The notes under the pieces are model-generated. The model was given only the letters and a program-made list of their open reading frames with translations. It had not been told where the DNA came from and searched no databases. The position numbers and the translations under genes are program-made. 17,519 nucleotides of DNA from Octopus sinensis (lineage: Eukaryota). This document shows, in pieces, positions 630 through 12,339 of the stretch (positions are counted from its first letter, which is position 1; each line of letters opens with the position of its first letter). The DNA is taken from assembly GCF_006345805.1 (NCBI RefSeq), contig NW_021824804.1, positions 1 to 17,519 of the forward strand, read 5' to 3'.

Positions 630-1140
630 AACGTGTTGCCCCTTTAACTGGTAATTAACATCGTGATTTGGGGTCTTCCCTTACCCAGCCTCCTTTATCA
701 ACAATTATTTATAGAAATCCTAAAATCCTAGCTATATTTATAACCATACTCAACTATAAACTCTCAACTCACTTCTGCCCTCTATTCTAAACAGACAATG
801 TCCTCTAGCTTTGGATTTGGTATTTGATTTAAAAAAAAAGACTAATAAATTATAAATGAACCACAATTCTTTACAAGCTATGACTCTAACAAACTTCATG
901 CTGTTCTTAGAAGTGTAGTATATTCTTATTCTTAGCTACATTAGTAGCAACATGGACTTCTTCCCTCTTCTTGCTCTATTGGAGAAATTGGGTAAAATCA
1001 TATTAATGTGTCCAACTGATCAAAAATTCTGAGGATAGCCCGGGATTTAAATTGATGCAATAGTTGCATTGTTCAATTAAATGGAGCCGCTTGAAACGGT
1101 AGTACTGCAACACCTCGATATCCTGTTGTTTATTTTGATT
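630..1140 (+). mobile_element. Putative decayed Penelope-like element 3' end (GIY-YIG C-terminal relic followed by a hammerhead-like terminus)
   Basis: Manual translation across frameshifts and stops gives, in order, C-(fs)-PLTGN (637-655), IYNHTQ (736-753), KQT..SSF/VFDLK (789-834), SYDSNK (876-893) and MLFLEV*YIL (898-927). This order resembles Penelope endonuclease motifs CPLxGxC...RxxNH...TxLSxxxWxLK...YxxxxKxCxLCLxE. CTGAGGA...GAAAC.GGTA.GTA follows at 1029-1104. The GIY/YIG residues themselves are not recognisable. Confidence 0.4.
1029..1104 (+). ncRNA. Hammerhead-ribozyme-like core, stem I not evident
   Basis: CUGAGGA 1029-1035; stem II AGC/GCU enclosing AUUUAAAUUGA/UCAAUUAAAU and UGCAA/UUGCA; GAAAC 1093-1097; GGUA loop; GUA triplet 1102-1104. 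Confidence 0.45.
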
Positions 1141-1148
1141 ACATATGT

Positions 1149-1293
1149 TGTGTGTGTGTATGTGTGCGTGTATTTATATATATATATATATATATATATA
1201 TATATATATATATATATATATATATACATACAATACATACATACATACACATACATACATACATACATACATACATACATACATACATATGTA
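1149..1293. repeat. Compound microsatellite (TG)n-(TA)n-(TACA)n
   Basis: Directly visible. Confidence 0.97.
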
Positions 1294-1451
1294 TATACTT
1301 ATTTCGATAGGTGAATGAATTGTCCTATGTTTACCGTCAGCATGGAAAATTCGATGAACCGATACCAGGGTAGCAAATTCACGTCAGAAACATGGTTGAA
1401 GCGACCTGTCCAAGGGTAGAAACTCCGGGTTCGTGTGCAGAAATTTGTGTT

Positions 1452-1688
1452 ATATATGAATAAATAAAAGAATGGAGTCGAACATTTTGTTTACCATGTA
1501 GGCAGTCATCGAAATTTTTGTTTGTCTTGTTGTTGAGAGAGGCTCCCTTTCTTTCCTGATGAGAAGATTGCATCTTGCACCCTTTATTCCTTTGGAATGA
1601 AACTATGTTGTCTTCGAAACATATGCCGAGAGTAAAGGAATTTTGCTAACATCTCCGTTCGACTCCATTCTTTTATTTATTCATTTAT
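1452..1688 (+). mobile_element. Short element with perfect 28-bp inverted termini and an internal hammerhead motif (Penelope-derived/retrozyme-like)
   Basis: ATGAATAAATAAAAGAATGGAGTCGAAC (1456-1483) is the exact reverse complement of 1657-1684; hammerhead core at 1546-1638. Confidence 0.65.
1546..1638 (+). ncRNA. Type I hammerhead ribozyme motif, one core substitution (GUC to GCC)
   Basis: Stem I CUUUC (1551-1555)/GAGAG (1628-1632), extendable by CCUUU/AAAGG; CUGAUGA 1556-1562; stem II GAAGAU/GUCUUC with inner hairpin UUUAUUCC/GGAAUGAA; GAAA 1616-1619; palindromic stem III CAUAUG; GCC at 1625-1627 where GUH is expected. Confidence 0.65.
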
Positions 1689-1724
1689 GTATATACTTAT
1701 GTACCAAGCTTTAAAAAAGTACTA

Positions 1725-1800
1725 GATTCGATTTTTTCGACTGAAACCCTTCAAGGCAGTGCCCCAAATTGGCTGCAGTCCAATAACTAAAACAAATAAC
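1725..1800 (+). mobile_element. 3' tail fragment related to SINE family B
   Basis: TCGACTGAAACC...GCAGTC...AAACAAATAA resembles the family B tail at 3586-3637 and the reverse-strand tail at 15992-16055. Confidence 0.5.
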
Positions 1801-1930
1801 ACACACACACCACACACACATACATATATATGTACTATGTATTTATACTGTATGTGTGTGTATATATGCATATATATGTATACATATATACACACACAAA
1901 TGCACACGCACACGCACACGCCCACATACA
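1800..1930. repeat. Compound (CA)n/(TA)n/(TG)n microsatellite
   Basis: Directly visible. Confidence 0.9.
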
Positions 1931-2093
1931 GAGTTTTCACAGTTTTTTCTTTCTATGCCAACGTCATATTATTATCGTGCTATGTCGCACCCTCACAAAG
2001 AAGATTAACCGGGTGGATGACTGAACTAAAGCTTCGAATGATCGGGTGGGAATCGGGTTTATGAGAATTAAACCTTTTTGAAAGATAATTAGA

Positions 2094-2270
2094 GGGCGGT
2101 GAGATCGTAGAAATGTTAAAGCATCGCACTAAATGCTTTACAGACTTCGTTCTTCACAGCTTTGTCTTTAAATTTCATTAATATTGGGTCGAGGGTGGGA
2201 GGCGATAGAGAGTAATTAAATACCAGTTATACATTGCGGTTTGTTGCAAGCTGCCTTTCTCCTCTCCTCT
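2094..2270 (+). mobile_element. Old, highly diverged SINE related to family A
   Basis: GGCGGTGAGATCGTAGAAATGTTAAAGCA...AAATGCTT matches the family A head; TAAATACCAGTTATACATTGCGGT matches AAGTACCAGTTACGCACTGGGGT. Confidence 0.5.
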
Positions 2271-2299
2271 TATAGAAAGTCATACGAAGTGTACTTATC

Positions 2300-2478
2300 G
2301 ATGTTGTTAGCCCCTGGCCTGTCATAGTCGTCCAGATCTATGACTAAAGGCGTTCCCGCCGTGACCAACGCATTTATTTTGCATATTTATGGTTATAGAA
2401 TCCGTAACGTTTCTTCAGTTGTGAGGTGGGACATTCTATTTCTAGAAGGTCGAGAGGAAACGTGTAGAGCCTACCCTC
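2300..2478 (-). mobile_element. Old dispersed repeat, family D
   Basis: TATGACTAAAGGCGTTCCCGCCGTGACC matches units at 13283-14630; CTATTTCTAGAAGGTCGAG (2436-2454) matches 14404-14422 at 18/19. Strand inferred by treating the (GTT)n flank as an (AAC)n tail. Confidence 0.5.
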
Positions 2479-2689
2479 CACCACCACCTCCACTATCAGC
2501 TGTTGTGGTAATGTGTGTGTATCGGGTTTGATACACACACACGCACACACACACATACTTATCTCTTCTTGTATATCCCTTCTTTCTCCTCATTTGTATG
2601 CAAGCCCATCCTCCTAAAATAGAAGCCGACTTTTACTGCTCTCGGCATATATATTGGAATATCTCCATCTGTTGCTTCATATTTTGAAA

Positions 2690-10079: not shown

Positions 10080-10172
10080 ATATATGTATGTATGTATGTA
10101 TGTATGTATGTATGTATGTATGTATGTATGTATGTATGTATGTGTATGTATATATGTAGGCGTGTGTGTGTA
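10080..10172. repeat. (TATG)n microsatellite
   Basis: Directly visible. Confidence 0.97.
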
Positions 10173-10174
10173 TG

Positions 10175-10513
10175 AATCTTTTGAGCAAACAGCCTTGGAG
10201 TGAAAATAATGGAAACCGTCGTGTCAAAATGGTATAAGAAACTGTTCCAGCCAACATTAATGGGCTAAGGGGTGCAAAGCAAAGGGGCTGCAAATATACC
10301 TCCTGCACTGACCCGTTAAGCTCATACTTGCAATATCTGCGGACTTCTTTGCAAATCCTAGACGGGCCTCAAACGTTACATTCAACACAAGCATTTTCAT
10401 TGACAAAGGAAGTATAGGTTGTCGGTTCCTAATACGTCAAAACCGACATGGAAGTCCGTCAGAGAGACAGATAGATAGATAGATAGATAGATAGATAGAT
10501 AGATAGATAGATC
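10175..10513 (+). mobile_element. 5'-truncated LINE 3' end (RTE-like): C2H2-finger relic, 3' stem-loop, (AGAT)n tail
   Basis: 10323-10403 translates HTCNICGLLCKS*TGLKRYIQHKHFH*; stem TGTCGGTT (10420-10427)/AACCGACA (10441-10448); microsatellite tail 10461-10513. Confidence 0.6.
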
Positions 10514-10556
10514 CAAAACAGGTAGAAACGACAAAAAAGAAAACTACTCCTGCCAG

Positions 10557-10929
10557 TGAGAGATAAATATTAATTTGATAAACAACCCAAAGACCTACAA
10601 ATAGTTTCATATTCTTATGATACTTTAAATCGCCTGCATTAATTGCGGTTTCTGCAAATAAAGGAGGACGGGACCTTAGGTTTCTTGCTTTCATTTCTTG
10701 CTTCTCTTTCCATTTCCTGCGTCAACCTTCTTCGCGTTTCTCATATGTTTTCTTATTTTCTCAATGTCCAGCTCTCTAGTTATTAAAATATATCTAACAC
10801 TTAAACAGAGCCTGAAAGATTTCTTGGAGATACCTGGCATATTTTATAAATATGCCTATTTAAAAGTATCTTAAAAGCATGAAACTATTGGTATTCGTTT
10901 CGGTGTGTGTATTAAATTGATGTTTCTCA
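10557..10929 (+). mobile_element. Old inverted-arm element with a degenerate hammerhead core
   Basis: Reverse complement of 10596-10630 (ATTTAAAGTATCATAAGAATATGAAACTATTTGTA) aligns with 10858-10893 (ATTTAAAAGTATCTTAAAAGCATGAAACTATTGGTA); CTGAAAGA at 10812-10819; hairpin 10836-10856; GAAAC...GTA at 10881-10893. Confidence 0.55.
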
Positions 10930-11000
10930 ATCTTAACTCTTTGAGAAAAAAATCTTCTCTCCAAATATTATAACTGTATCAAGGAATTTCCAAACGCTCC

Positions 11001-11061
11001 ATATATATATATATATATATATATATATATTATATATATATATATATATATATATATATAT
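11001..11061. repeat. (TA)n microsatellite
   Basis: Directly visible. Confidence 0.97.
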
Positions 11062-11356
11062 GAACTATAAGATATATATGTATGCTATTGAGGTTCTCAT
11101 TTTGTTAAATCAATCCAACATTATAATATCCGAAAGTTGATGAACAAACTAAATTTGTTTCTCCATTTTCTTATTTGTATTATAAATTTACGGTAAAAAA
11201 AATTGTTTACCTTCACCTGTTTAATACAATAAATGAGTTAATTGCATTGCAATTAAAAACATTTATGTATTAAGAATCAGGGTACTTTACCAACAGGATA
11301 TTGGATTAGTGCTATCCCTTAGTGGGTTATACCAATAACCCTATCTTACTTTGTAC

Positions 11357-11424
11357 TATATATATAATATATATATATATATATATATATATATATATAT
11401 ATATATATATATATATATATATAT
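11357..11424. repeat. (TA)n microsatellite
   Basis: Directly visible. Confidence 0.97.
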
Positions 11425-11740
11425 TACACACACAACGTCAATAACCATTATAATTCGTCACTACAAGCAGGTGTTTCAAAGAAAGCCGACAGAAATTTCT
11501 AAAAAATCCCGTTATTACCATATCGGACCCGATTTCAGAGTTAGTTCATAAGTGATAAATGCGGCAAAGAAATAAATGAAATACTTACTTACACCCATGG
11601 AAGAAGCAAACACTAAGTCATGAGCACAACTAAGTACGGATTCTGTACAATTTCTGCCTACACATTTCTCTCACAAAGTATGGGTCTATCCAAAGCTATA
11701 CATAAATTACATTTGTCCAAGATACTACAGATATATAGAA

Positions 11741-11830
11741 TATATATATATATAATATATATATATATATTATATATATATATATATATATATATTATAT
11801 ATATATATATATATACATACATAATATATT
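11741..11830. repeat. (TA)n microsatellite
   Basis: Directly visible. Confidence 0.96.
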
Positions 11831-11860
11831 AGAAGGTTTGGAGATGATGTACAGGTATTT

Positions 11861-12339
11861 TATATTAAAGAAATGAGGTACTCAGAAATTCGGATGGTTT
11901 TATATTTACAGATATTTATTTGTATATTACATGTTTTTATACATCATATATCATATAACATATATAGCGATTTCGTCCATTCTAGTAGAGTTTTCAATTT
12001 GAACTAAGTTCTTGGGGAAAATTTGACTATTTTTATAGTGTATTGAGTGTGTAGTGGTGGGGAGAGATATAAGATAGTACAAGACAGTACACTTTCACAG
12101 CATTCATCACCCTCTTGTACTATCTTATATCTCTCCCCACCACTACACACTCAATAACACTATAAAAATAGTCAAATTTTCCCCAAGAACTTAGTTCAAA
12201 TTGAAAACTCCACTAGAATGGACGAAAGCCCTAATATATGATATATGATATATATTGTATAAGAACATGTAATATACAAATAAATATCTGTAAATACAAA
12301 ACCATCCGAATTTCTGAGTACCTCATTTCTTCTAATATA
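11861..12339. mobile_element. Near-perfect long fold-back element: about 225-bp arms, 28-nt spacer, inserted in (TA)n
   Basis: 11861-12084 is the reverse complement of 12113-12339 with few differences; spacer CAGTACACTTTCACAGCATTCATCACCC at 12085-12112. Confidence 0.9.

Follow-up and report, generated by a model that had tools for sequence, protein, structure and literature searches.

Truncated ends of Penelope-like element families and their hammerhead motifs in an Octopus sinensis contig

Penelope-like element units in the window

The window, the whole 17,519-nucleotide stretch of Octopus sinensis contig NW_021824804.1 that was analyzed, contains six sites with hammerhead-like boxes pointed out by an initial annotation. 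They trace to six different high-copy families of the genome (G000). On the basis of motifs, as for all clade labels used here, we assign families 1029, 1556, 4086, and 10812 to Hydra-type Penelope-like elements (PLEs), 2778 to the Poseidon type, and 12201 to the Neptune type. A seventh PLE unit, of the 8603 family, had been overlooked; it consists of a minus arm (8111–8450), a minus 3' piece with a tail (8442–8570), and a plus arm (8561–8768). PLE fragments of the seven families make up about 21% of the contig (3,769/17,519 bases; table 1). The seven host units have no blastn match to one another at E ≤ 0.01, in keeping with the earlier view that the host sequences are mostly unrelated.

Table 1. 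Features assigned in the window (clade labels are motif based; pLTR, pseudo-LTR)
Feature	Position	Strand	Support
3' UTR and pLTR of Hydra-type PLE, 1029 family	1..1140	+	85% identity to L189 over 1–1140
Minimal hammerhead motif, 1029 family form	1029..1110	+	column counts, 49 copies
Inverted 5'-truncated arm (~32 nt) and tail (~150 nt), 1556 family	1300..1483	−	
5'-truncated pLTR of Hydra-type PLE, 1556 family, ending at TA	1485..1688	+	92–97% identity, 29 other loci
Canonical-core minimal hammerhead motif, 1556 family	1552..1631	+	column counts, 40 copies
5'-truncated arm of Penelope/Poseidon-type PLE, 2778 family, with internal deletion	2690..2859	−	
Minimal hammerhead motif, 2778 family	2739..2782	−	column counts, 71 copies
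Opposite arm of the 2778 insertion, hammerhead deleted, running out in the tail	2862..3026	+	
Inverted arm (3' end without tail) of Hydra-type PLE, 4086 family	3792..3868	−	
Direct arm (to about 3966) and tail (about 3967–4108), 4086 family	3887..4108	+	
Seventh PLE unit, 8603 family	8111..8768	both	
Inverted truncated arm and tail, 10812 family	10499..10628	−	
5'-truncated pLTR of Hydra-type PLE, 10812 family	10681..10928	+	
Minimal hammerhead motif with 8-nt first box, 10812 family	10807..10898	+	
Inverted arm and tail (about 35 nt) of Neptune-type PLE, 12201 family	11832..12084	−	
Direct 5'-truncated arm ending at (TA)n, 12201 family	12090..12335	+	
Variant minimal hammerhead motif, 12201 family	12197..12237	+	

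The inverted duplications reported at these sites are confirmed by the coordinates of the arms for 1556 (1452–1483/1657–1688), 2778 (a fold-back at 2813–2921), 4086 (3792–3868/3887–3966), 10812 (10499–10628/10860–10928), and 12201 (11817–12084/12090–12339). In the 12201 unit, the minus arm carries a second hammerhead copy near 11960–12001, and the direct arm shows 91–97% identity among the scored matches spanning it entirely. The contig starts inside the 1029 element; in longer copies the ORF ends ~50 nt upstream of base 1. For each family we sampled the best 24–30 of 40 scored loci, out of 104–2593 first-look candidates; being the best scoring, they are biased towards window-like copies.

Hammerhead motifs in the window and in the families

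Exact CTGANGA boxes occur in the window at 1029(+), 1556(+), 2778(−), and 4086(+); the box at 10812 reads CTGAAAGA and that at 12201 reads TTGAAAA. The bare box count alone is within chance: nine were observed, whereas shuffling the window's dinucleotides 200 times, with microsatellite runs removed, gave 5.3 ± 2.3, and 16 of the 200 shuffles reached nine. No window sequence matches the full structural descriptor as an intact motif; when the cleavage triplet is relaxed, it retrieves two, at 1029 and 1556, against a shuffle mean of 0.015. Among family copies, with variant cores and a helix I of at least 2 bp allowed, it matches 16/49 (1029), 26/40 (1556), 25/71 (2778), 5/28 (10812), 9/26 (12201), and 2/26 (4086), with no match on the opposite strand and at most 0.15 in shuffles. 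Measured against dinucleotide shuffles, as the initial annotation had proposed, the descriptor exceeds expectation in family copies, and in the window with the relaxed triplet, but the bare box does not. A scan with Rfam gave 245 matches to the window, and the 150 of these that were listed include no hammerhead family, nor do the four matches to positions 950–1140. The listed Rfam matches are low scoring and fall on microsatellites and fold-backs.

The hammerhead is damaged or absent in every window copy. In the 1029 copy the 5' strand of helix I is gone and helix III contains a mismatch, the 1556 copy has GCC instead of the GUC triplet, and in the 2778 copy G-C replaces A15.1-U16.1. Helix I pairing is lost at 10812, helix III is changed at 12201, and both hammerheads of the seventh unit carry deletions. 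The 4086 copy has no hammerhead, its direct arm beginning immediately downstream of where the family motif would sit. The CTGACGA taken earlier for a truncated box at 4086 is tail sequence, the family motif lying upstream; all copies of this family end about 20 nt past the box because the tail ends there.

At the family level, comparison of copies predicts a minimal type I hammerhead with core boxes, helices I and II, a palindromic helix III, and NUH. This motif is complete in the 1556, 2778, and 8603 families and has variant positions in the other four. In the 1556 family, core positions are conserved in 36–40 of 40 copies, and the entire motif, with a 5-bp base of helix II and a palindromic helix III, is intact in 20 of them. 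According to column counts over 71 copies, the 2778 hammerhead is without loop III and has a palindromic ACGU. Each core position of the 1029 family is kept in 42–49 of 49 copies (column counts), with U.U at 10.1-11.1. The 10812 family also has U.U at 10.1-11.1, and its 8-nt first box, with an extra base after A6, is found in 84 of 86 exact-pattern sites. The 4086 family combines U4C with C.A at 10.1-11.1, and the 12201 family U3-A8 with C.C at 10.1-11.1 and a helix I of only 2 bp. As U3-A8 occurs in 348 sites of this lineage and C3-G8 in 3, a compensatory change, the core described as degenerate at 12201 is a fixed family variant. Helix I of the 8603 family covaries between subfamilies at A-U/G-C (6 vs. 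3) and C-G/U-A (6 vs. 4; n = 14 copies).

The cores initially proposed at 1029, 1556, 2778, and 10812 survive as family motifs exceeding shuffles, but none is intact in the window. The check for restoration across family copies that the initial annotation suggested shows a complete hammerhead with two covarying positions, with variant cores in 1029, 10812, 4086, and 12201. Minimum-energy folds of one natural copy from each of six families gave the helix II hairpin in 6/6 and helix I in 4/6. They did not recover the catalytic junction, as expected for dimer-dependent motifs, and we do not count them as evidence. From their sequence, these hammerheads are predicted to cut the element RNA.

Coding sequences upstream and structure of the insertions

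In longer copies, six families continue upstream into same-strand coding sequence for the reverse transcriptase (RT) and/or the GIY-YIG endonuclease (EN). In the 1556 family, RT and GIY-YIG lie upstream in L157, and pLTR, tail, and ORF follow in direct order at 8 of 30 RT-selected loci, forming a pLTR-ORF partial tandem; the tail is the same sequence as the 5' leader before the ATG in L254, L262, and L265. For a 451-aa frame of this family, 207 relatives reach E ≤ 1e-20; the long ones (n = 106) carry RWK (84), DKT (91), and CxCX5C (91). The family itself has DKT (L262), RWL for RWK, and no CxCX5C linker. The 1029 and 10812 families do have this linker, which is partial in 4086. The EN of Hydra-type families contains CxxC and CxH and no CCHH; as to (TA)n targets, dinucleotide repeats follow the 3' end in part of the copies.

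For the 1029, 10812, 4086, and 12201 families, the coding link is EN or EN with the RT thumb. GIY-YIG frames with CxCX5C, CxxC, and CxH precede the 1029 pLTR in L181, L182, L185, and L187; EN is directly upstream in L083, L089, L091, and L096 for 10812, and EN frames lie upstream in L213, L216, and L217 for 4086 (tblastn E 0.06, 4e-7, and 3e-6). Copies L144, L164, and L205 of the 12201 family encode a CX4CxxC linker and GIY-YIG; the CX2-5CxxC linker before EN in L205 and L144 suggests a Neptune-type element, and Nematis has the same linker. Upstream of the 2778 family are RT, DKG, and EN frames (L222, L238, L239, and L244), with DKG and no Cys linker before EN in L222, L238, and L244; its RVT_1 score, 38.6 bits, is above the cut-off of 29.6. 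Hydra- and Neptune-type frames fall under the curated Pfam cut-offs (RVT_1 19.5/29.6; GIY-YIG 13.4–21.8/22.6). The 8603 family is linked to a Hydra-type RT (E 1e-21) at one locus only, L287. No single unbroken full-length ORF was found in any copy read, and searching the window with PLE frames by tblastn produced no match under E 0.2.

In the window copies, a truncated arm lies inverted, the tail is on one side only, and (TA)n often flanks the unit; tails measure about 35–170 nt across families. A 5'-truncated end with these three features is the published insertion structure of PLEs. The 1556 family shows scattered 5' ends, the 67 of them lying between +102 and positions past −285, counted from the box; a defined 5' end near −1050 in the 1029 family vanished once the search moved upstream. 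Diverging inverted pairs were found at 9/24 (1029), 10/29 (1556), 15/24 (2778), 2/24 (10812), 0/24 (12201), 10/24 (4086), and 12/23 (8603) loci; this 3'-end test detected no pair in the 24 loci of the 12201 family, yet the window and L153 each have one. Same-strand duplicates occur at 0–2 of 24–29 loci per family and at 6/23 in the seventh.

We conclude with high confidence that the sites are 5'-truncated 3' ends of seven protein-coding PLE families, likely inserted into (TA)n-rich DNA by their own RT and GIY-YIG. Each truncated 3' end very probably represents a pseudo-LTR with a minimal hammerhead motif, an inverted second arm, and a one-sided tail. The link to Penelope made at the outset, with a minimal type I hammerhead and an inverted partial pLTR, is upheld by the RT/EN frames upstream and the layout of the arms, the termini being joined to PLE frames through one locus in the seventh family. 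Conversely, the six sites do not represent separate 200–500 bp nonautonomous families: all six extend into RT and/or GIY-YIG, and 5' ends are scattered. By analogy with described PLEs (PMC8557442, PMC4209133), the GIY-YIG EN would nick the target DNA, RT would copy the RNA from its 3' end, mostly stopping early, and a second short copy would be laid down reversed beside the first. Tandem read-through transcripts would be cut by the hammerhead of the source element, acting as a dimer that pairs via the palindromic helix III, and inserted copies would then decay neutrally.

An alternative, which we regard as improbable, is that PLE proteins act in trans on short noncoding, retrozyme-like hammerhead RNAs, either transcripts of the pLTR alone or circles, and that the resulting copies form families of their own. 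Most sampled copies are short, and retrozymes derived from PLE pLTRs have been described (bioRxiv 10.64898/2026.07.22.740005); however, all seven families run into an ORF. Of the 5' ends in the 1556 family, 8/67 cluster between −70 and −77 relative to the box, but none from the 30 RT-selected loci does, and the hot spot was discarded. The 12201 family provides one partial direct tandem (L169), but (TA)n separates its units, as when one copy lands beside another. Multimeric head-to-tail arrays were seen neither in the window nor in the sampled loci, so these coding families fall outside the definition of retrozymes suggested for them earlier. Four contig sets presumed to be RNA (4 of 22 listed runs) cover the element; no splice or circular joint was detected in them, a weak test, and RNA ends are not readable from such sets. 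Finally, the chance-level box count, the lack of a hammerhead among the listed Rfam matches, and TA flanks, compatible with Tc1/mariner targets too, would fit arms that are terminal inverted repeats of DNA-transposon MITEs, with motifs arising by chance, but this extremely improbable origin is refuted by the upstream RT and GIY-YIG frames and by arms diverging from a variable internal junction with lengths differing from copy to copy; moreover, in each of seven unrelated families the full motif is found repeatedly and on a single strand, and no fixed inward-facing terminal inverted repeats were found in the sampled loci (one converging pair across all of them; junctions vary).

Atypical cores and relation to known systems

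Minimal hammerheads at truncated PLE ends have been described from many animals and are ordinary biology; the sole mildly new part is that atypical cores are fixed in whole families. The families, and C.C, C.A, and A6a cores in PLEs, may already be catalogued. We propose, quite tentatively, that whole PLE families reached copy numbers in the hundreds or thousands with such cores, as working dimeric variants or nearly dead ones. If they work as dimers while escaping current search descriptors, PLE hammerheads would be undercounted; if nearly dead, they would offer a natural test that cleavage is dispensable for PLE retrotransposition. The seven families constitute a ready panel of natural hammerhead core variants. 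Lunse et al., in 2017, reportedly described PLE hammerhead variants cleaving as dimers. What the hammerhead does in EN+ PLEs has been called unclear (PMC8557442), and the contrast in cleavage between canonical and variant families would bear on it.

Our Hydra-type families share with the Hydra clade a C-terminal GIY-YIG, DKT, CxxC, CxH, (TA)n targets, and a 3' hammerhead with a palindromic helix III (PMC8557442). Hydra-1_Obim of Octopus bimaculoides, a Hydra PLE bearing a hammerhead of this kind, is already in print; by eye, the L287 frame resembles its protein, whereas its listed hammerhead differs from those found here (PMC8557442). Five short motif strings of our families were not found in the supplement of that study, in which line breaks could mask matches. 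Unlike the described clade, the 1556 family carries RWL and an Asn-rich insert but no CxCX5C linker, tails reach about 140–170 nt versus 30–40 bp, and two families have a 3' UTR of about 1 kb (PMC8557442). The 2778 family shares DKG, LPKIHK-like, and YVDD motifs and the lack of a Cys linker with the Penelope/Poseidon clade, and 12201 shares the CX4CxxC linker ahead of GIY-YIG with the Neptune clade.

Like the minimal hammerheads of metazoan PLEs (PMC4209133), those reported here are of type I, with loop III palindromic or absent, located in the pLTR and mostly single, with opposite-strand pairs 100–700 bp apart and a U3-A8 variant; the 2-bp helix I of the 12201 family is known from D. virilis (PMC4209133). 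They differ in that four families lack G10.1-C11.1 (U.U twice, C.C, and C.A), helix II loops extend up to 40–65 nt, and in one family A6 is followed by an extra base. U3-A8, A6a, U.U, and U4C are given as rare natural hammerhead variants in PMC3088659, whose consulted passages do not show C.C or C.A cores. Retrozymes consist of units with canonical hammerheads repeated head to tail, and they are expressed as circles (PMC7229834; bioRxiv 10.64898/2026.07.22.740005). With non-LTR retrozymes, the units of the window have in common a type I hammerhead, a short noncoding look, and PLE ancestry, but they are variable-length inverted pairs of coding families.

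Hammerhead-like sites and their repeat families

The window is an entire contig (G000:C1275; 17,519 bases) of a 2.72-Gb genome. It is AT-rich with abundant microsatellites, and no coding remnant of Penelope-like elements (PLEs) was detectable in it by tblastn. All seven sites, including a unit overlooked by the initial annotation (8603 family), are dispersed repeats in the genome. We confirmed four exact CTGANGA boxes, the inverted arms beside the sites and the unrelatedness of their host sequences. The sites 10812 and 12201 are present, but their boxes are non-standard. Compared with shuffled controls, bare boxes are not above chance (9 versus 5.3 ± 2.3, with at least 9 in 16/200 shuffles), whereas the full descriptor with a relaxed cleavage triplet is, yielding two window motifs versus 0.015 in shuffles. 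With the triplet unrelaxed, the window holds no intact motif by this descriptor, which requires helices I–III; the hammerhead is damaged or absent in every window copy.

For each family, we scored 40 candidates and took the 25–30 highest-scoring as 3-kb loci, a choice that biases the samples towards window-like copies. Motif alignments of six families comprise copies with at least 60% of the motif, duplicates being removed by context; the seventh comprises copies spanning the motif. The Rfam scan suggested initially gave no hammerhead among the matches listed for the window (150 of 245) or among the four in 950–1140. Column counts give complete cores in the families, with variant positions in four of them. 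Canonical cores with G10.1–C11.1 characterize families 1556, 2778 and the seventh. Positions 10.1–11.1 are U·U in the 1029 (47/49 and 49/49) and 10812 (26/28 each) families, and the first box of the latter is 8 nt long in 84 of 86 exact-pattern sites genome-wide. The 12201 family has U3–A8 at 348 sites versus C3–G8 at three (reversed-pattern controls, 0), a freely varying N7, C·C at 10.1–11.1 (25/26 each) and a helix I of 2 bp. In the 4086 family, position 4 is C in 14/26 and T in 7, and position 5 is A in 8, this T and A following a CpG-decay pattern; 10.1–11.1 is C·A (16/26 and 25/26). In each of the seven families, helix III is a palindrome or close to one. As to stem covariation, helix I of the seventh family contains two compensatory pairs, counted as sequences and not as independent events. 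The atypical cores fixed in whole families are the one lead worth following. Lunse et al. 2017 may deal with such variants.

Features of the window and of genomic loci (first-look candidates are not copy numbers; the inverted-pair test requires 3' ends kept on both arms and therefore undercounts)
Feature	Position	State or layout	First-look candidates	Diverging inverted pairs (loci)	Same-strand duplicates (loci)
1029 family	1029	helix I lost	2245	9/24	2
1556 family	1556	GUC to GCC	2061	10/29	1
2778 family	2778	A15.1-U16.1 to G-C	2593	15/24	1
4086 family	4086	family hammerhead absent	310	10/24	0
10812 family	10812	helix I lost	1109	2/24	0
12201 family	12201	helix III changes, both arms	2389	0/24	2
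Seventh PLE unit (8603 family)	8111-8768	deletions, both arms; complex, tandem and inverted	104	12/23	6
Tails, two Hydra-type families	1300-1450; 3967-4108				
Dispersed repeat A	3184-3336; 4957-5102; 15549-15688; 16465-16604; 16770-16914				
Dispersed repeat B	8844-9229; 13416-13647; 16109-16341				
Dispersed repeat C	3432-3533; 16356-16451				
Inverted arms	14765-14859; 15118-15212	~70% alike; ends of 450-base stretch; MITE-like			
TTAGGG, 2-3 units	5809-5824	within otherwise unique sequence			
1556-family unit	L157:1564-6272	RT and EN			
12201-family arm	L205:3288-4508 (minus)	EN missing			
563-aa frame	L170:230-1918	intronless			

Three further dispersed repeat families (A–C, several copies each) are, we assume, SINE-like.

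Coding sequence upstream of the 3' ends

The proposed Penelope relationship was borne out, as every family joins PLE coding sequence upstream of its 3' end. In the 1556 family, a GIY-YIG endonuclease (EN) frame precedes the shared 3' end in 7/29 loci. In locus L157 both reverse transcriptase (RT) and EN do, with Pfam matches below the cut-offs (RVT_1, E 9e-4; GIY-YIG, E 0.02–0.1). The direct order pseudo-LTR (pLTR), tail, ORF occurs in 8 of 30 RT-selected loci; the tail is the ORF leader, and all tails share an end position ~50 nt before the ATG. For a 451-aa frame of this family (L262), searching at E<=1e-20 gave 207 relatives. The 120 listed include 106 long ones, of which 84 carry RWK, 91 DKT, 91 CxCX5C and 6 DKG, a profile that matches the Hydra-clade signature of PMC8557442. 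For one element's protein, the relatives with a named source come from Octopus bimaculoides (64% identity, 42% of query) and Argonauta hians, which makes an octopod the likely host.

Window bases 1–1140 are a single 1029-family element, and copies extending further upstream contain CxCX5C, GIY-YIG, CxxC and CxH. EN lies immediately upstream in four 10812 loci (L083, L089, L091, L096) and upstream in 3/12 loci of a walk for 4086. The 2778 family has Poseidon-type RT and EN, RVT_1 exceeding the Pfam cut-off. For 12201, we found a Neptune-type linker and GIY-YIG (L144), a second EN end (L164), and RT thumb and linker (L205); for the seventh unit, L287 is the sole locus in which RT follows the pLTR and tail. 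The observed sites are real, explained and ordinary: they are further members of known PLE clades.

The tail of the L157 unit adjoins an open frame of 539 aa that belongs to another Hydra-type PLE; one element has probably inserted into the other. The L205 arm, its RT thumb and linker fused directly to the 3' UTR, is an internally deleted copy. Adjoining 12201-family copies, the L170 frame resembles HD-domain dNTP triphosphohydrolases and is presumably SAMHD1-like.

Insertion architecture

Only one converging pair occurs across all sampled loci of the seven families. The window sites are very probably dead 3' fragments left by target-primed reverse transcription, a process we infer from the literature. 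Reverse transcription would stop early, leaving a 5'-truncated 3' fragment, and a second, inverted copy would be added at insertion. The predicted hammerhead would cut a tandem precursor RNA as a dimer; such cleavage has been proposed, single motifs being inactive and dimers weakly active (PMC4209133). The 5' ends of the 1556 family range from +102 to beyond −285, with 8/67 at −70 to −77, a cluster absent from RT-selected loci; that a minority of copies derived from pLTR-only RNA seems very improbable.

Comparison with known elements

Min-HHRs have been described genome-wide, with opposite-strand pairs 100–700 bp apart and U3–A8 (PMC4209133), and Hydra-1_Obim is listed together with its hammerhead (PMC8557442). 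Natural core variants include U3–A8, low-activity A6a, U10.1–U11.1 and U4C (PMC3088659). Retrozymes are defined as tandem repeats (PMC7229834; bioRxiv 10.64898/2026.07.22.740005). In O. vulgaris, 31 PLE families were recently active (PMC13282606); "hammerhead" and "ribozyme" are absent from the main text of that paper. Our search for literature on Penelope hammerheads in octopus or cephalopods found no paper covering these families. In loci L057–L080, the first box, homologous to window 1029, is immediately preceded by CTGAT, which resembles a branch point, then by a stretch rich in pyrimidines and CAG; this layout looks similar to Drosophila virilis Penelope, where an intron ends in helix I. 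PLE insertions show 5' truncation, an adjacent inverted copy, a tail at one end and a (TA)n bias (PMC8557442), and the window units show the same structure; the tails of two Hydra-type families (~150 and 140–170 nt), however, exceed the 30–40 bp described.
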